This document shows, one piece after another, positions 2,254-30,935 of a stretch of 64,000 nt of DNA. Within the stretch, counting starts at the first letter, position 1; each line of letters starts with the position of its first letter. Under the pieces are notes generated by a model, which saw only the letters and a program-made list of their open reading frames with translations, ran no database searches and was not told where the DNA came from. This DNA comes from a phage. The stretch is taken from the sequence record PZ445524.1, one strand, 5' to 3'. Made by a program: the position numbers and the translations under genes.

Positions 2254-4950
2254 TCAGCCAAACAGGAAGTCTAACGAAGCTTTTTCTTCATAGTCCATGC
2301 CAGCCGATTCACACATACCCGCAAGCGGTTTAACAAACGATTTTTGGAACAAAGTTGAGTGGTCAATCCAAGATAGTACATCAGAACGAATTTCTTTTGG
2401 AAGTTCTGTACCCGATGGCCAAGCAATGCACTTGTCACCAAATGGATTTCCTTCACGTAATGGAAGAACCATTACCTTATTTCCATCCAAAATTGGAGCT
2501 ACACCCAGACCACTAACAGCTCGACGATAAGTTAGCACACCGCGAATATGGAACGGGCATTTAAATCCTGGCCAACCTTTATCATCATATTTCGCTATAT
2601 CGTTCGCAGTTTTTACTTCAGCAATAACTTTATAGTCAAGTTGACGATATTCTTTCTCGAAGTTCTTGTAGTATTCTTGGACAGACTCTTCACCTTCCTG
2701 AAGAATACGACGAATACTTTCTTCGAGAGCTTCTTGCACTGCTTTTGGTGTTGAACTCTGCTGAGTTTCCATACCCATGATTTTTAGATGCGGTTCAGCA
2801 AATCGTTTATCTTCCATATCATAAACGTTCAGAGCATAACGCTTTTTCGCTTTCCAAAATCCACCAACACCCTTTGAACCAAGTGGAGGGCAAGAAATAG
2901 CTTCACGGTCCATATGCATCAGATGCTCGCGGTTATTCATATAATCACATAACTCACGATATGCAACATCAATCATAGGTTCCATCTTTTTCTTACCGAA
3001 CTGATTCATAAATTCAACCAAATCGTTCTGCTCTTTGAATCGGTCAAGACCTACTTTTTCAATAACTTTATCTACACAAACATATACAGAATCAGTATCA
3101 CCTGCTGCAATGAAATCTTCGCCATTAGTTCCGCATACTTTATTCAGATATTCATTAATTTTACGAGCAATCCACTGAATACCGACTTGACCAAAAATTG
3201 TGATAGCAGTAGCATTTCGCAAATCATAGTAACGGAAATGAATATTACCAAGAGCACCATAAAGACTGTTAATGAGAATTTTACGGTTTAGCTGATTTGT
3301 ATTAGCAAGTGTAGCCGCTTTTTCACATTCTTCAATCAGACTATTGAGAACAGATTCGGTGTAATTCGATAGTTCATTTAAGAAATCATCACTGAACTTA
3401 ACATATCGTTCAACTTCTGGTTTAGTTGAACAAGACCCTGCGCCTTTCATAATAATCTTTTTAATAGCTTCGGCATTCATTTCTTCAGCGAACATTTTCT
3501 TTTTCCAATCTTTACGCTGGAAAAATACTTTAGCGATTTCCTTTGGAATGATACCTTCTTGATGCTTATCATACATCCATCCATTCGGAGAACAAGAATA
3601 TTCATCACTCGGTTTAGGAGCTGTTCCTGCGATATATTCATGAATTGGATGAACTTTAAACTGACCACGAATAGTCTCAGGACTAATGTTAACCTGACGA
3701 ATAATGCTCGGATACAGAGACGTCAAGTCAAAACTCATAATATATCGACGAGCAATTGGTTTAGGTTCAAATACAAATGCACCCGGAAAACTTTGTTTAA
3801 CGTGCGAACCTTGCTGAGGAATAACCTTATGTTCACCTTTCAATGAGTTAAAAATAATAGCATCCCAAGTTTTAATAGGACTCATTACGCCAGAAAAAGG
3901 CATTTTAGCGTAATAAGACATACTTAAAACTAGATCGATAAACCCGCGAATTTTATCGATTGCTTGAACTGATTCTACGTCAATGATGTTATAACTAATG
4001 TATCGTTGATGATTAGTCTCACGAAGTTTATTAATAGGACCGTCGTATGGTAATTTACCTTTTTTGGTTTCATGCTGAGCAACTGATTCCAAAGAGAATG
4101 ACGGCAAATTAGTAAAAGCGAATTTCTTGTACAAATCTAAATAATCAAGAATAGATACGCCATCAATAGAATAAATTTCTTTGCTACCGTACATATTTTG
4201 AATTAGTTTAGATTTTACCCGACCGATTGGAGAGAAGCGTTTCATACTGCGTTCACCCAGAATCATTTTAACGCGATTCATGATATACGGAACGTCAAAT
4301 CCCTCAATATTCCAACCAGTAAAAATAGCAGGTCGTTTCTGTTCCCAGAGATTGATATATTCCATGAGCATATCACGCTCATTATCGAATGGCATATAAA
4401 TTACTCGGTCAAGAATTTCTTGAGGAACTTCATCACCACCTTCACAGTCAAGCTTAGCAGCTAACTTTGCATCCCATTTTGATACTGAACCATACATTGA
4501 ATTCAAAAGGTCGAAAACATAAAAACGGTCATCAATTGAATCGTAATGAGTGATAGCATCAATTTCATATTCAGCTTTCATTGGGTCAGGAAATTTATCA
4601 CCAGTAACCTCAATGTCACAGTTAGCTACACGAACAAATTTTCGGTCATAAACAATTTCTGAACCATACGTATCACTGATATAAGCGAGTTTAAAATCGT
4701 TCATACCGAGAGCTTCGAGACCGATGTCTTCCATTCGCTTCATCCAATCTCGAGCATCTTTCATTGATGGAAATTTTTGAGGAGCGCAATTTTTACCATA
4801 GATGTCTTTGTACTTTGACTCTTCCTTACAATGCCTAAACATAGTCGGAAGATATTCTACTTCACGAGTACGTTCCTTTCCGTTTTCATCAATATAACGT
4901 TCAACAATGTTATTTCCGACTGTTTCAATAGAGATATAAAATTCTTTCAT
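2254..4950 (-). CDS. 43: DNA polymerase (gp43), family B
   Basis: 898-aa ORF, same length as T4 gp43; DTDS polymerase motif; exonuclease motifs; ATG at 4948-4950. Confidence 0.97.
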   Translation of the reverse strand: MKEFYISIETVGNNIVERYIDENGKERTREVEYLPTMFRHCKEESKYKDIYGKNCAPQKFPSMKDARDWMKRMEDIGLEALGMNDFKLAYISDTYGSEIVYDRKFVRVANCDIEVTGDKFPDPMKAEYEIDAITHYDSIDDRFYVFDLLNSMYGSVSKWDAKLAAKLDCEGGDEVPQEILDRVIYMPFDNERDMLMEYINLWEQKRPAIFTGWNIEGFDVPYIMNRVKMILGERSMKRFSPIGRVKSKLIQNMYGSKEIYSIDGVSILDYLDLYKKFAFTNLPSFSLESVAQHETKKGKLPYDGPINKLRETNHQRYISYNIIDVESVQAIDKIRGFIDLVLSMSYYAKMPFSGVMSPIKTWDAIIFNSLKGEHKVIPQQGSHVKQSFPGAFVFEPKPIARRYIMSFDLTSLYPSIIRQVNISPETIRGQFKVHPIHEYIAGTAPKPSDEYSCSPNGWMYDKHQEGIIPKEIAKVFFQRKDWKKKMFAEEMNAEAIKKIIMKGAGSCSTKPEVERYVKFSDDFLNELSNYTESVLNSLIEECEKAATLANTNQLNRKILINSLYGALGNIHFRYYDLRNATAITIFGQVGIQWIARKINEYLNKVCGTNGEDFIAAGDTDSVYVCVDKVIEKVGLDRFKEQNDLVEFMNQFGKKKMEPMIDVAYRELCDYMNNREHLMHMDREAISCPPLGSKGVGGFWKAKKRYALNVYDMEDKRFAEPHLKIMGMETQQSSTPKAVQEALEESIRRILQEGEESVQEYYKNFEKEYRQLDYKVIAEVKTANDIAKYDDKGWPGFKCPFHIRGVLTYRRAVSGLGVAPILDGNKVMVLPLREGNPFGDKCIAWPSGTELPKEIRSDVLSWIDHSTLFQKSFVKPLAGMCESAGMDYEEKASLDFLFG

Positions 4951-27984: not shown

Positions 27985-28002
27985 GGGAGCCCGAAGGCTC
28001 CC
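27985..28002 (-). terminator. Hairpin gggagcc-cgaa-ggctccc after the nucleotidyltransferase gene
   Basis: 7-bp GC stem with UUCG loop in mRNA, 2 nt after the stop, followed by U-rich tract. Confidence 0.5.
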
Positions 28003-28004
28003 TA

Positions 28005-29015
28005 TCATTTATAATAACTTCGGTGGTTTTCAAGATAGACCTTCTCAAGGAAGTCATCCCAGAAACCCATGTCTACTTTTTGCTGCATACCGTTCTTAGA
28101 AGCTTCAGTAGATGCTGCTTCTACTTGATCGACCACATCTTCCAAAAACTCTTGAACCGTTTTAAATGGATGTTTACCCAACTTCACGTCGAGAATAAAT
28201 GGAGCGTCTTTGAGTGGATAGACTAAGTCGCCAGTTTTGTAAATTTCCAATAGTTGAAGTCCACCACGACAAGCATGGCTCAGAGCTTTCCAGTCAATGC
28301 CTTCGTTGGCTTCGGCCTTACGAGCGCGTTCACCATATTCAGCATCTAATTTGTTCAGTGACTGCTTAAGCTCAATAAGAGAAAGAGTTGTCTGATATTT
28401 ACGACCCAACACAGTGTAGAACGTTTGTGGGCCTGTTTTCTCATGATTATGAAATACCCATTCACAGAACTCGTTCTCTGGAAGACGATGCTTAATATCT
28501 TCAACTTTAGTGCGACGCTGCTTAATAGAACCATCTTCTTGGTAATCAACCCATTGCTCAGGGATTTGATTAACTACTTTCAATACATCGCGTAATGCAG
28601 CCAAACGAGAACCCTTGACACCGTATTTAGAAGCTTGCTTGCGAACATATCCTAAATATGATTTCATGTTAGTCGTATAAAAACGAGAACGGTTGTCTTG
28701 AATAAACTTCCACACATCAGGCAAATCAGATTTAACCACTAGCTCAGGTGGAGTGTGAAGCATATCTAATGCTACAGTTTCACCATCTGCTGCTAATTTA
28801 AAGAAATACTTAAGACTGTATAGTTCATGGTCAATATCATCTTTAGTGTTTTTAGATGATGTGTTGTTAGTGTTTTTACTCATATGCTCTTTGACGTTTC
28901 CGATAAGAATATCGCGAGCAGGAGGAACAAAAATTTCTTTAAAATCTACATCAGATTCTGGGGTAGAAGTTCCATAAAGATGACTACCAAAATAAGACTT
29001 AACTACAGTTTTCAT
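28005..29015 (-). CDS. Polymerase-beta-superfamily nucleotidyltransferase-like protein
   Basis: N-terminal motif GSHLYGTSTPESDVDF (GS-x10-DxD) plus a later acidic residue (VALDMLH). Start ambiguous: track 29051 is TTG, ATGs at 29039, 29030, 29015; the start region overlaps the 3' end of the HNH gene. Confidence 0.55.
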   Translation of the reverse strand: MKTVVKSYFGSHLYGTSTPESDVDFKEIFVPPARDILIGNVKEHMSKNTNNTSSKNTKDDIDHELYSLKYFFKLAADGETVALDMLHTPPELVVKSDLPDVWKFIQDNRSRFYTTNMKSYLGYVRKQASKYGVKGSRLAALRDVLKVVNQIPEQWVDYQEDGSIKQRRTKVEDIKHRLPENEFCEWVFHNHEKTGPQTFYTVLGRKYQTTLSLIELKQSLNKLDAEYGERARKAEANEGIDWKALSHACRGGLQLLEIYKTGDLVYPLKDAPFILDVKLGKHPFKTVQEFLEDVVDQVEAASTEASKNGMQQKVDMGFWDDFLEKVYLENHRSYYK

Positions 29016-29778
29016 TATTAGACCTTTCATAATCTTCATTAAATTGTACAATCAATCGATGATAATTAGATTTTGGATATCCTAATTTACTTATATAAGT
29101 TCCGAATGACCCACGTTTAGGTCTATTTAATTTAATCCATAACTTATAAAGTAAGTCATAGTCTTGCCAATGTTTACCAGTTCTTTGTCTAATTTTAGAT
29201 GAATTTGATTGTTTCTTTTTAGTTTCAAAATTATTCAAAGATTTTTTGACTGCAGCAGAGTGTTTTTCTTTAACTCCCGGTCGTTTAAAAGCAGCTTTCA
29301 CCCCTTTAGATATTTTTTCTTTAACTTCCGGTTTGTTTTGTGCTTCTAACTGGGATTCTGAAATTTTAGCCCTTATTTCAGGAAGACTTAATGTTATCGA
29401 ACGTTTTTCTCTGTATTCATTAGACTTCCACATTTCTTTCATTGTATTAGAATGTATTTTTGAAAATTTTTCTCTAACTAACTGATATCCTCTTGAAGTT
29501 AATTTGAGATTTCTTCCTAAAGAATCTTCTCCAAAATTATAAAATGACCACCATGCATAAATTAATCCAGGCGAATTATAATGAATTTTAGCTAAAAGCC
29601 AATGGGCTATAAAATGCTCTCTAGCTGTTAATAAAACTAGATTATCAGAATCATCATTACCACCAATACAAGATGGAATAATATGATGCTTTTCCGTATA
29701 AAAATTTAATTTAGATTTATCTAATTTTCTGAGTTTTCCTTTCTTAATTAAATTATTATATACTTTAGTATAATTCAT
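28999..29778 (-). CDS. mobD: HNH homing endonuclease (MobD-like)
   Basis: 259 aa; HNH core EKHHIIPSCIGGNDDSDNLVLLTAREHFIAHW; repeated basic C-terminal modules (PEVKEKISKGVKAAFKRPGVKEKHSAAVKKS). Confidence 0.75.
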   Translation of the reverse strand: MNYTKVYNNLIKKGKLRKLDKSKLNFYTEKHHIIPSCIGGNDDSDNLVLLTAREHFIAHWLLAKIHYNSPGLIYAWWSFYNFGEDSLGRNLKLTSRGYQLVREKFSKIHSNTMKEMWKSNEYREKRSITLSLPEIRAKISESQLEAQNKPEVKEKISKGVKAAFKRPGVKEKHSAAVKKSLNNFETKKKQSNSSKIRQRTGKHWQDYDLLYKLWIKLNRPKRGSFGTYISKLGYPKSNYHRLIVQFNEDYERSNNENCS

Positions 29779-29852
29779 TGGTTCTTCGTCTCATTTAATT
29801 TTGCTTTGCATTTATAACACATGTCTGTTCCACTTGAAATAAACATATTTCC

Positions 29853-30410
29853 TCACTTTGAAATCATAGTTGGAATAACAGAATCAAGATAAGTCTTTAG
29901 TGCAATAGCTTCGTCTTTGTTTAATGTAATGATATGTGATCGAAAATCGTCAATTTGACGAATAGATACTATATCTCCCTCTTCATAGCATTTTGACACA
30001 TTTAAAATAGTTTCATCATTATGATTACAGGAGTTAGTAATAATAGCATTACATTTTTTAAACCATTTTAAATTATGTTTTCTTTTAGTAGAATCATAAA
30101 AATATTTAATGTTAGTTATAAAATTATCCCAATTATTAATTGATAAGCACATTGACTCGCTTTTAATATTAAATCCTGGGCATGAAGAATAAAAATGAAT
30201 TTTATGCTCATCATTAATGCTTACAATTTTATCAGTGTAAGCATATTCAATTTGGGTTAAACGAACAATTTCGCTAGGCGTAAAATATAACATGTCATCT
30301 TCTTGCGTCAAACGATACATGTTATTTACTTTTTCTATAGCCAATTCACCAAAAAGCGGACTAACTTCTAATACTAATCGTTTCATATTGATTCTCTTCG
30401 ACTCACTCAC
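29853..30410 (-). CDS. Hypothetical Cys-rich protein
   Basis: 185 aa with scattered cysteines; start may be GTG at 30410 or ATG at 30386. Confidence 0.45.
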   Translation of the reverse strand: MSESKRINMKRLVLEVSPLFGELAIEKVNNMYRLTQEDDMLYFTPSEIVRLTQIEYAYTDKIVSINDEHKIHFYSSCPGFNIKSESMCLSINNWDNFITNIKYFYDSTKRKHNLKWFKKCNAIITNSCNHNDETILNVSKCYEEGDIVSIRQIDDFRSHIITLNKDEAIALKTYLDSVIPTMISK

Positions 30411-30543
30411 AATTACATACTCCTTTGAATAATATCAATAATGTTGTTCACCAGATTATAAGTAAACATTGGGTAATTATATTGAATCATCACATACACA
30501 ACAAACAAAATTTTCATTCTCTTCTCCTTGACAGTTGACAAGA

Positions 30544-30577: not shown

Positions 30578-30751
30578 TTAAATGACGTTTTCAATAAAAT
30601 TCTGAAGCTTTGTGTGAGCATCAACCATGATTTTCATTTCTTCCTTTGCGAAAGCTGTACCTCTTTCCCGAGAAGAACATTCATAGTCAGAAACTGCATT
30701 AGCATATTCTTCAATTAGCTTCATTAAAAACATCTGCTTTTCAGTTTTCAT
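30578..30751 (-). CDS. Hypothetical small protein (57 aa)
   Basis: Found by hand: ATG 30749-30751 with GGTGGAAT SD gives MKTEKQMFLMKLIEEYANAV... Confidence 0.3.
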   Translation of the reverse strand: MKTEKQMFLMKLIEEYANAVSDYECSSRERGTAFAKEEMKIMVDAHTKLQNFIENVI

Positions 30752-30935
30752 TATTCCACCTAATCATTTCAAGATATTGAACTAACTTAGCTTTAGATTT
30801 ATCCAAATCCTTTTTAGCTGCTTCTATACCGTCGTATGAATATCCTTCACAATGCTCAACTGCTAATTGGTATGAATCTATTTCAATATCACGTGCTAAT
30901 TTAATGATTTTTTCAAACTGTTCACGTGTTAGCAT
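30741..30935 (-). CDS. Hypothetical small protein
   Basis: 64-aa ORF. Confidence 0.4.
   Translation of the reverse strand: MLTREQFEKIIKLARDIEIDSYQLAVEHCEGYSYDGIEAAKKDLDKSKAKLVQYLEMIRWNNEN

Follow-up and report, generated by a model that had tools for sequence, protein, structure and literature searches.

The free-standing endonucleases MobA and MobE of phage T4 are reported to nick a single strand of the target DNA and to be passed on preferentially in crosses (PMC2988022), and several T4 endonucleases have target genes that differ from their insertion sites (Table 1, PMC2988022). For MobD, the same 2010 review gives the activity as 'ND' and the target as 'unknown', making mobD one of the few T4 homing-endonuclease genes with both entries blank in the reference table (PMC2988022), and no later study of MobD activity or target was found in the literature. 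A further described system is I-HmuI, which binds an extended site as a monomer (PMC3664794; PMC5714182), and the DNA-binding domains of I-HmuI and I-TevI consist of NUMOD3 helices and a helix-turn-helix (PMC3664794).

The window analysed here is a 64,000-nucleotide stretch of phage DNA (PZ445524.1), in which a first-pass annotation had marked a MobD-like open reading frame. This frame was indeed found on the minus strand, with an ATG start, no earlier in-frame start, and a product of 259 amino acids. By sequence comparison it is the ortholog of T4 mobD, beyond merely MobD-like: the product is identical to T4 MobD (NP_049710) at 258 of 259 amino acids, with T186 here and A186 in T4, and the DNA is identical at 778 of 780 nucleotides. 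mobD is already a known gene, also called nrdC.12 in T4, and its annotation as 'homing endonuclease MobD' is correct and is left unchanged. The gene and its surroundings are laid out as follows.

28005..29015, minus strand: nrdC.11, Pol-beta-type nucleotidyltransferase of the RlaP family (Pfam RlaP, E 2e-11)
28999..29015, minus strand: stretch of 17 nt shared by the mobD 3' end (..N E N C S stop) and the opening codons of nrdC.11 (M K T V V K), from the sequence
28999..29778, minus strand: mobD coding sequence (open reading frame list; T4 annotation and synteny; PHROG 655)
29779..29852, minus strand: intergenic leader upstream of mobD, from the sequence
29853..30410, minus strand: mobD.1, the upstream neighbour, a y05I-like putative transcription factor (Pfam T4_y05I_N and T4_y05I_C)

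The gene order nrdC.10–nrdC.11–mobD–mobD.1 is that of T4, with mobD, nrdC.11 and mobD.1 on one strand, and nine other carriers have the identical layout, in which mobD lies between nrdC.11 and mobD.1 and ends inside nrdC.11. The mobD stop codon (28999-29001) is 17 nt within nrdC.11, whose true start is the ATG at 29015 according to the T4 annotation and is conserved in 35 related loci; the earlier observation that the stop overlaps the start of a nucleotidyltransferase-like gene was therefore accurate. The overlap is annotated alike in T4, RB3, CM8, G28 and NRG-P0074. Database searches returned 1640 homologs of MobD, the closest at E 1e-169, and a match to PHROG 655 'homing endonuclease' at E 1e-56. 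The mobD copies of RB3, CM8, G28 and FL08 have 100% DNA identity to that of the window. The genome around mobD differs from T4 by approximately 2.6% over 2.5 kb, which makes the window part of another Tequatrovirus and not of T4 itself.

The nuclease part of MobD was located by homolog alignment, by structure modelling and by comparison with solved HNH domains.

29584..29700, minus strand: HNH / ββα-metal catalytic core, amino acids 27-65
29683-29688, minus strand: HNH residues H31 and H32
29641-29643, minus strand: HNH residue N46
29614-29616, minus strand: HNH residue H55
29602-29604, minus strand: HNH residue H59

The first-pass annotation had made its reading depend on the conservation of the HNH catalytic residues. 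On proper alignment of 115 homologs these residues proved invariant; the full set of invariant core positions is E29, H31, H32, P35, G40, N46, H55, H59 and L62. The AlphaFold2 model (pLDDT 91.6) predicts strands at 28-32 and 47-51 followed by a helix at 52-65, a ββα-metal core with pLDDT of 93-98, and has the His-Me finger layout, with H31/H32 at the end of β1, N46 before β2, and H55/H59 in the following helix. The HNH motifs of 6me0 (a group II intron maturase) and 6ghc (McrA) match MobD residue-for-residue, and the best Foldseek matches were HNH domains with a probability of up to 0.97, yet every E-value was above 0.2. The Pfam HNH model PF01844 scored below its gathering threshold of 21.4 bits, at 18.2 bits for the full protein and 20.0 bits for the N-terminal fragment; the homologs P0005, P0009, P0013 and P0015 exceed that threshold. 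The 'clear HNH core' of the first-pass annotation is thus clear by its aligned residues and predicted fold, but not by the curated HMM.

The remainder of the protein appears to be devoted to DNA binding, and two features were assigned to it.

29179..29421, minus strand: five tandem basic helical modules of about 17 amino acids, amino acids 120-200, diverged NUMOD3-like (self-similarity, homolog alignment, model)
29011..29175, minus strand: C-terminal three-helix domain, amino acids 202-256 (HW.DYDLLY.LW..LNRPKRG.FGT.ISK.GYP.SNY), presumed helix-turn-helix DNA-binding module

The repeated lysine-rich modules that had been reported, with the peptide PEVKEKISKGVKAAFKRPGVKEKHSAAVKKS (amino acids 150-180, 29239-29331), are real and lie where homologs carry NUMOD3 minor-groove-binding repeats. 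Their sequences are NEYREKRS.., PEIRAKIS.., PEVKEKIS.., PGVKEKHS.. and FETKKKQS... The two most alike, KPEVKEKISKGVK and RPGVKEKHSAAVK, are 17 amino acids apart and have a BLOSUM62 score of 35, a value reached by 1 in 1000 shuffles of the central region (21.9±3.4). All five modules are predicted to be helical with a pLDDT of about 97, and they line up without gaps, unit for unit, with the five NUMOD3 repeats that Pfam confirms in the homolog P0025. MobD modules share with NUMOD3 (PF07460), which is found in I-TevI, I-BmoI and many MobD homologs, the position, the period of about 17 amino acids and the core E-x-[KR]-x-K-[IM]-S, but have K/R-P where the canonical unit starts with G-K-x-H-S. Neither the full sequence nor the central segment taken by itself matched the NUMOD3 HMM at E ≤ 10, and BLAST with the central segment alone was marginal, at E 1e-3 to 1e-6 uncorrected and ≥1e-3 after composition correction. 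Sequence searches of Pfam, NCBIfam and PDB placed neither the central repeats nor the C-terminal domain in a family. The single-sequence model of the C-terminal 65 amino acids was poor (pLDDT 66.6), and a fold search with that model was uninformative. More remote members of the family that share this C-terminal domain are not adjacent to nrdC.11-type genes.

A comparison of mobD presence and absence among T4-like genomes had been proposed, and it gave strong population-genetic signs of mobility. Near-full-length mobD was found in 54 phage records of the GenBank phage collection, 47 of them at ≥99% identity, so that carriers make up approximately 8% of T4-like records (54 versus about 605-680 records holding the flanks); IMG/VR gave only 35 distinct nrdC.11 loci and was not the source of these frequencies. 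In ten carriers from Europe, Asia and the classical RB collection, mobD is 99.7-100% identical to the window, with flanks that are 94.7-97.7% (nrdC.11) and 89-98.5% (mobD.1) identical. Nucleotide diversity among ten carriers and the homology breakpoints with RB14 delimit the same block, at one end of which lies a patch that sets carriers apart.

28995..29827, minus strand: T4-type mobD cassette of 833 bp, consisting of a 49-nt leader, mobD, and the start of nrdC.11 (21 nt) in recoded form (RB14 breakpoints, π)
28995..29007, minus strand: nrdC.11 nt 9-21, a carrier-specific patch with candidate immunity changes in a putative homing site (carrier/non-carrier comparison)

Within 28995-29827 π is approximately 0.002, versus 0.04-0.11 outside. 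The exact left junction of the cassette follows ..CAAGTGGAA. This is not an otherwise empty intergenic site: the cassette replaces RB32ORF096c and 097c, which other T-even phages keep, and the breakpoints with RB14 show ORF097c (from nt 20) and ORF096c in the place of the cassette. The mobD-linked block runs from 21 nt inside nrdC.11 to 19 nt past the mobD.1 stop codon. Because carriers and non-carriers are interleaved beyond these ends without fixed differences, hitch-hiking of the neighbouring genes with mobD, as had been suggested, is not supported. For example, CM8 nrdC.11 is 0.9% from that of a non-carrier, and mobD.1 has no fixed carrier/non-carrier differences and has mixed nearest neighbours. 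No co-conversion gradient remains in the flanks. These sequence comparisons show that the recent spread of mobD took the form of a compact cassette of 0.8 kb, and they support homing. Between lineages pN/pS is about 0.2 (0.15-0.25) in all three MobD domains, which shows purifying selection on the protein and a maintained function. At least one natural copy, that of Pu-Krd-SF5, is a pseudogene, and G8 has a clean mobD deletion.

Upstream of mobD, the first 19 nt of ORF097c persist as a remnant at 29828-29846, as determined by alignment with the RB14 ORF097c start. The sequence TATAAATG (29809-29816) matches the T4 late-promoter box TATAAATA at 7 of 8 positions and is presumably a late promoter, judged by the T4 late consensus. 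No good Shine-Dalgarno sequence or other recognisable ribosome-binding site was found in the mobD leader, a hairpin sequestering the ribosome-binding site, as in I-TevI or segB, was not found upstream of the gene (ΔG -8.4 kcal/mol, z = 0.6), and a sigma-70 promoter scan of the upstream region was at chance level. An origin of the 49-nt leader from ORF096c/ORF097c, or its reading as an operator-like copy of the putative homing site, was rejected with alignment scores within the shuffle range.

The insertion point was also found occupied in two other lineages. NRG-P0074 and the IMG/VR locus L011 carry diverged mobD genes (74-80% amino acid identity) as insertions of approximately 770 nt exactly between the ORF096c stop and the nrdC.11 ATG, with ORF096c intact beside them, and close relatives of both, with flanks 94-97% identical, have an uninterrupted junction. 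The T4-type, NRG-P0074-type and L011-type genes all abut the nrdC.11 start codon, a common insertion point in three lineages. Across the 1011 nt of nrdC.11, the only fixed differences between ten carriers and ten non-carriers are at nt 9, 13, 15, 18, 19 and 20, and the non-carrier version of the nt 9-21 site is absent from the window when up to 3 mismatches are allowed. Between NRG-P0074 and L014, its relative with an empty site, the differences fall at nearly these positions; L011 instead differs from its relatives at nt 24-33 and at nt 9-21 still reads as non-carriers do. NrdC.11 with the 'carrier-type' M5V change is also present in genera without mobD, and the non-carrier L015 has a carrier-type nrdC.11 5' end. 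The mobD stop codon itself arises from the nt 9-21 changes, which could thus be a by-product of cassette formation. Just downstream of the insertion point are the codons for the invariant N-terminal motif YFGSHLYGTSTPESDVDF of nrdC.11 (32 loci, several genera). Across genera the nrdC.11 5' end is conserved at the nucleotide level, but other parts of the gene are more so, and conservation by itself is therefore no pointer to it as the target. From the comparisons taken together, we infer that the likely target of MobD is the 5' end of nrdC.11.

We consider it probable that MobD is a free-standing HNH (ββα-metal) homing endonuclease that cuts mobD-less relatives near the ORF096c/nrdC.11 junction, and that the 833-bp cassette is then copied in. 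In the scheme that we propose, the N-terminal 100 or so amino acids would be the nuclease, the five basic NUMOD3-like helices would lie along the DNA, and the C-terminal three-helix module would anchor the enzyme on a long asymmetric site. During a mixed infection, MobD would nick or cut a co-infecting relative without mobD at or near the junction, most probably within the first 35 nt or so of nrdC.11, just before the stretch that encodes the invariant GS...DxD nucleotidyltransferase motif. The mobD-carrying genome would then serve as the repair template from which the cassette is copied, with the loss of ORF096c and ORF097c as well in T4-type phages, and the carrier site would be immune, being split by the insertion and recoded at nrdC.11 nt 9-21. 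The enzymatic activity, the choice between a nick and a double-strand break, the exact target and the mechanism of immunity are what we infer in this scheme. A narrower proposal is put forward tentatively, and may well not hold in full: the homing site would be the first 35 bp or so of nrdC.11, carriers would be immune through recoding of 6-7 nt (T4-type, NRG-P0074-type) or through a Ser-codon switch further in (L011-type), and each T4-type homing event would delete two conserved genes from the recipient, ORF096c, which encodes a membrane protein, and ORF097c. If this is true, an endonuclease gene would be actively eliminating genes of its host phages throughout the Tequatrovirus population.

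MobD could also be a real homing endonuclease that cleaves elsewhere, in ORF096c, ORF097c or a distant flanking gene, with the nt 9-21 patch a scar of cassette formation. In characterised free-standing T4 endonucleases such as SegF, SegG and MobE, insertion point and cut are often hundreds of bp apart; such distant cutting is usual among Seg and Mob enzymes, so the cut site may lie away from the junction. T4-type carriers without ORF096c and ORF097c would be immune to cutting there because any such site is absent, and both the origin of the mobD stop codon in the patch and the non-carrier sequence retained by L011 fit a scar. On the other hand, a site inside ORF096c would need to be mutated in the non-T4 lineages, which keep that gene intact beside mobD, carrier-specific alleles are absent from the whole of mobD.1 and from nrdC.11 outside the patch, and the insertion point is common to three lineages to the nucleotide. 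We regard cleavage elsewhere as unlikely.

A nuclease that no longer drives its own spread, either a relic or a protein domesticated for example against competing phages or for regulation, and moved by the ordinary homologous recombination that is very frequent in these phages, perhaps under selection for another benefit, appears more improbable still. T4-like genomes are mosaic, the mobD flanks recombine freely, translation signals for mobD are not evident, the gene is dispensable because a pseudogenised copy and a clean deletion exist, and T4 intron endonucleases can double as repressors (PMC2988022). However, a near-clonal cassette across backgrounds 4-10% apart needs the recent, fast spread that drive gives, the catalytic residues are intact and invariant, the exact site is common to the three lineages, and the nuclease and DNA-binding parts are alike under purifying selection over a divergence at which synonymous sites are saturated. 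As for a chance open frame or mis-called gene, long open reading frames on either strand are commoner in an AT-rich context such as this, but the 1640 homologs, the PHROG match, the confident fold and codon-level purifying selection stand against it; it is already refuted by the homology and selection data and can practically be dismissed. A homing endonuclease acting near the ORF096c/nrdC.11 junction remains the reading we prefer.

New here are the carrier share, the near-identical 833-bp cassette, the nt 9–20 differences, the two further lineages at the same junction, and pN/pS. The comparisons define the borders of the cassette to the nucleotide and supply natural empty sites for three lineages, along with a carrier-specific patch of 13 nt as a candidate immunity determinant, and the expectation that neighbours ride along is corrected, as the T4-type cassette displaces two genes instead. 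Compared with T4 MobD itself, nothing of substance is different, with the same neighbours and the same 17-nt overlap with nrdC.11. T4 MobE and MobA resemble MobD as free-standing, intergenic genes of T4-type phages with a patchy distribution, whose products carry an N-terminal HNH domain and a separate C-terminal region for DNA binding, but they have other insertion sites and the target genes nrdB and gene 39, and their similarity to mobD at the DNA level is limited to the HNH core. I-HmuI is intron-encoded and belongs to the His-Me subgroup HNH_3 / zf-His_Me_endon, whereas T4 MobA-E are in group 1, with a PF01844-type HNH (PMC5714182), and its structure (PDB 1u3e) was absent among the sequence and fold matches of MobD. 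In architecture, however, this HNH nickase from an intron of Bacillus phage SPO1 resembles the layout presumed for MobD, with an HNH nuclease, NUMOD3-type minor-groove helices and a helix-turn-helix (PMC3664794; PMC5714182).

A DNA search with positions 28000-30500 of the window matched 679 phage records, the top matches being T4 and its close relatives (97.4% identity), in which the annotated gene order is nrdC.11 – mobD – mobD.1 – mobD.2. The ORF under study differs from T4 mobD at 2 of 780 nt and its product from T4 MobD at a single residue (T186 in the window, A186 in T4). This near-identity points to a Tequatrovirus segment carrying mobD itself, rather than simply the MobD-like HNH homing endonuclease gene proposed in the first-pass annotation. 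The overlap that annotation had noticed with the downstream nucleotidyltransferase-like gene, nrdC.11, is also real. Although the nrdC.11 frame is open from a TTG at 29051, the gene really begins with the ATG at 29015, since this is the start annotated in T4 and is conserved across 35 related loci, and the mobD stop therefore falls within nrdC.11.

28999..29778, minus strand: mobD ORF, 259 aa, ATG start with no in-frame start further upstream
28999-29001, minus strand: mobD stop codon, 17 nt inside nrdC.11

The product name 'molybdopterin-guanine dinucleotide biosynthesis protein MobD' sits on homologues of T4 mobD.4 or mobD.1 (T4 RefSeq, L001 5923-6105, and many other records), and 'thioredoxin' sits on nrdC.10 and nrdC.11 in phage records; both look like name-driven misannotations spreading among phage records.

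When presence and absence were compared among T4-like genomes, as had been proposed, near-full-length mobD was found in 54 records (47 at ≥99% identity, one at 90-95%, and the remainder at approximately 73%), against 605-679 records containing its flanks. The other 218 matching records have only the HNH core in common with mobD, from other mob genes. A spread sample of non-carriers had approximately 985 bp in its place, with two genes, RB32ORF096c (ORF096c, a small membrane protein) and RB32ORF097c (ORF097c, a paralogue of the upstream y05I-like neighbour mobD.1), and the annotations of RB14 and RB32 already carry the remark 'replaces mobD'. Homology between the window and RB14 ends at 29019/29020 and returns at 29828, and finer alignment gave the borders of an 833-bp cassette:

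29828, minus strand: left cassette junction, past the first 19 nt of ORF097c, …CAAGTGGAA|
28995, minus strand: right limit of carrier-specific sequence, nrdC.11 nt 21

Nine more carriers (T4, RB3, CM8, G28, Pu-Krd-SF5, pSe_SNUABM_01, FL08, BYEP01 and KFS-EC3), originating from the USA, Ireland, Germany, Russia, Korea, Denmark and China, were compared with the window and were 99.7-100% identical in mobD, 94.7-97.7% in nrdC.11 and 89-98.5% in mobD.1. Mean pairwise diversity among carriers is approximately 0.002 over 28995-29827, all of it due to seven singletons, and jumps abruptly to 0.04-0.11 on either side. Against ten non-carriers, the only fixed differences in nrdC.11 are at nt 9, 13, 15, 18, 19 and 20; nt 22-50 hardly vary in either group, and from nt 51 on divergence between groups equals that within them. 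No fixed differences were found in mobD.1 in the compared sample. For six of the ten carriers the nearest nrdC.11 is that of a non-carrier, with CM8 only 0.9% from one. The near-uniform cassette, diverged flanks and interleaved neighbours argue that the cassette moved recently across diverged backgrounds and that the neighbouring genes, which had been suspected of spreading with mobD, did not travel along.

Comparison of 35 IMG/VR loci from several Tevenvirinae genera showed ORF096c immediately upstream of nrdC.11 in many of them, which looks like the ancestral arrangement. Diverged mobD genes were found in two lineages, NRG-P0074 (74% aa identity) and locus L011 (80%), each time as an insertion of approximately 770 nt that falls precisely at the boundary between ORF096c stop and nrdC.11 ATG; relatives with flanks 94-97% identical (L014 and L015; L030) keep this junction uninterrupted. 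Insertion at the nrdC.11 start is thus common to all three mobD lineages. T4-type carriers and non-carriers differ within nrdC.11 nt 9-21, and nearly the same positions distinguish NRG-P0074 from L014, its relative with an empty site. In L011 this stretch is retained, and the differences lie at nt 24-33 and include a Ser AGC→TCA switch. This region precedes the codons of the nucleotidyltransferase's invariant YFGSHLYGTSTPESDVDF motif. Because of the shared insertion point, the carrier-specific changes, and the absence of the non-carrier version from the window, we propose nrdC.11 nt ~1-35 as the putative homing site. Against this, the nt 9-21 changes also generate the mobD stop codon, the NrdC.11 V5 variant is present in genera without mobD, L015 lacks mobD yet has carrier-type sequence, and the 5' region is not the gene's most conserved part. 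It is also common for free-standing T4 endonucleases to cleave DNA away from the site at which they are inserted. Across genera, the first 40 nt of nrdC.11 (L008-L036, positions 3001-3040) fall into two classes, ATGAAAGGCTAYTTYGGTAGYCA (Met5, Ser = AGY) and GTNAAR… (Ser = TCN), the former kept even at synonymous positions among genera whose NrdC.11 is only 64-82% identical to that of the window; these could be endonuclease-sensitive and endonuclease-resistant alleles.

Although the Pfam HNH match to MobD is under threshold (18.2 bits for the whole protein and 20.0 for the isolated N-terminus; cut-off 21.4), the proposed HNH core stands, as the catalytic residues are conserved on alignment. In 115 of 1640 homologues from a database search, E29, H31, H32, P35, G40, N46, H55, H59 and L62 are invariant, and they align with the HNH motifs of a group II intron maturase (6me0) and McrA (6ghc). 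PHROGs places MobD in phrog_655 'homing endonuclease' (E 1e-56). A confident AlphaFold2 model from the 115-homologue alignment (pLDDT 91.6) predicts a ββα-metal core (strands 28-32 and 47-51, helix 52-65), a run of long helices at 95-200, and a three-helix unit at 202-256. Its top Foldseek matches are HNH domains (Cas8-HNH, McrA and Cas9 HNH), although the elongated shape of the model keeps their statistics weak. A 146-aa MobD fragment from a Logan assembly (P0004) has systematic C-to-T-type changes relative to T4 (S→F, H→Y, T→I, P→L), and seems to have been assembled from T4 DNA reads after chemical or enzymatic conversion rather than to be a natural variant.

The repeated basic modules previously noted resolve into five units of period 17 at aa 120-200, with core E-x-[KR]-x-K-x-S. 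The best internal match, KPEVKEKISKGVK with RPGVKEKHSAAVK (offset 17 aa), scores 35, against 21.9±3.4 for shuffles of the central region, 1/1000 of which reached 35. Many homologues have Pfam NUMOD3 at this position, and the repeats align gapless and in register with five confirmed NUMOD3 units of one homologue (P0025). However, the NUMOD3 HMM did not match MobD itself and segment-only BLAST of the repeats was marginal once composition was corrected, so we call them putative diverged NUMOD3-like helices. Distant family members have the same C-terminal W..LW…GYP..NY domain at unrelated loci (L053 2826-3584 and L054 4001-4744), one between the dCMP-deaminase region and gene 31 of a T4-like contig and the other near terminase in a Klebsiella prophage; this C-terminal domain therefore has no fixed link to nrdC.11.

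Among the three mobD lineages, pN/pS is approximately 0.15-0.25 whether measured in the nuclease, the repeats or the C-terminal part, with synonymous sites saturated, which argues that MobD, its putative DNA-binding half included, is kept functional. Loss was also observed. In Pu-Krd-SF5 (L044 2501-3280) one nonsense substitution, equivalent to window 29552, gives two annotated CDS in a freshly pseudogenised copy that is otherwise 99.9% identical; Pu-Krd-SF1 and SF2 apparently share it. Phage G8 (L007 2817-3017) has lost all DNA between two copies of the 14-mer AATAATGAAAACTG, at 29006-29019 (mobD/nrdC.11 junction) and 30742-30755 (mobD.3/mobD.2a junction), the only two in the 64-kb window, where none is expected. 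The genes from mobD.2a through mobD are gone as a result, and mobD.3 now runs into the ..NNENCS tail.

Optional genes have a hotspot in the nrdC.9-mobD.1 stretch. Beside nrdC.10, a gene for a seg-like (GIY-YIG) endonuclease is present in RB3 (L041 1-177), pSe_SNUABM_01 (L045 1-625), FL08 (L046 1-627), RB32 (L049 1-427) and AR1 (L050 1-427), and is missing from the window and T4; in SV76 (L040 1394-1879) a ModA-like ORF separates nrdC.10 from nrdC.11. In RB14 (L002 3158-3541) and SV76 (L040 3479-4302), mobD.1 and ORF097c are truncated or split into small ORFs while the DNA is still homologous over its full length, which suggests ongoing decay of these y05I-like genes in a subset of non-carriers.

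In the 74-nt mobD leader, TATAAATG at 29809-29816 matches 7/8 positions of the T4 late-promoter consensus; no convincing Shine-Dalgarno sequence or significant RNA structure was found there. The 3' end of mobD provides AAGG nine nt upstream of the nrdC.11 ATG, the same spacing as in non-carriers, and nrdC.11 therefore keeps a ribosome-binding site. A 2010 review gives two descriptions of mobD, as a cassette lacking a promoter and as a gene with a promoter close to the 3' end of its upstream neighbour; it also records that half of the free-standing endonucleases are missing a recognisable translation-initiation region (PMC2988022).

The identification of mobD holds but is not new. For decades, mobD of T4 has carried the annotation of a putative HNH mobile endonuclease. 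The 2010 review lists it as free-standing, HNH, with insertion site nrdC.11/mobD.1, activity 'ND' and target 'unknown' (PMC2988022), and a 2017 classification put MobA-E in His-Me group 1 (PMC5714182); later experimental work on MobD was not found in the literature. To this the present analysis adds exact cassette borders, population evidence for recent spread without hitch-hiking, one site recurring in three lineages, and a predicted target open to testing.
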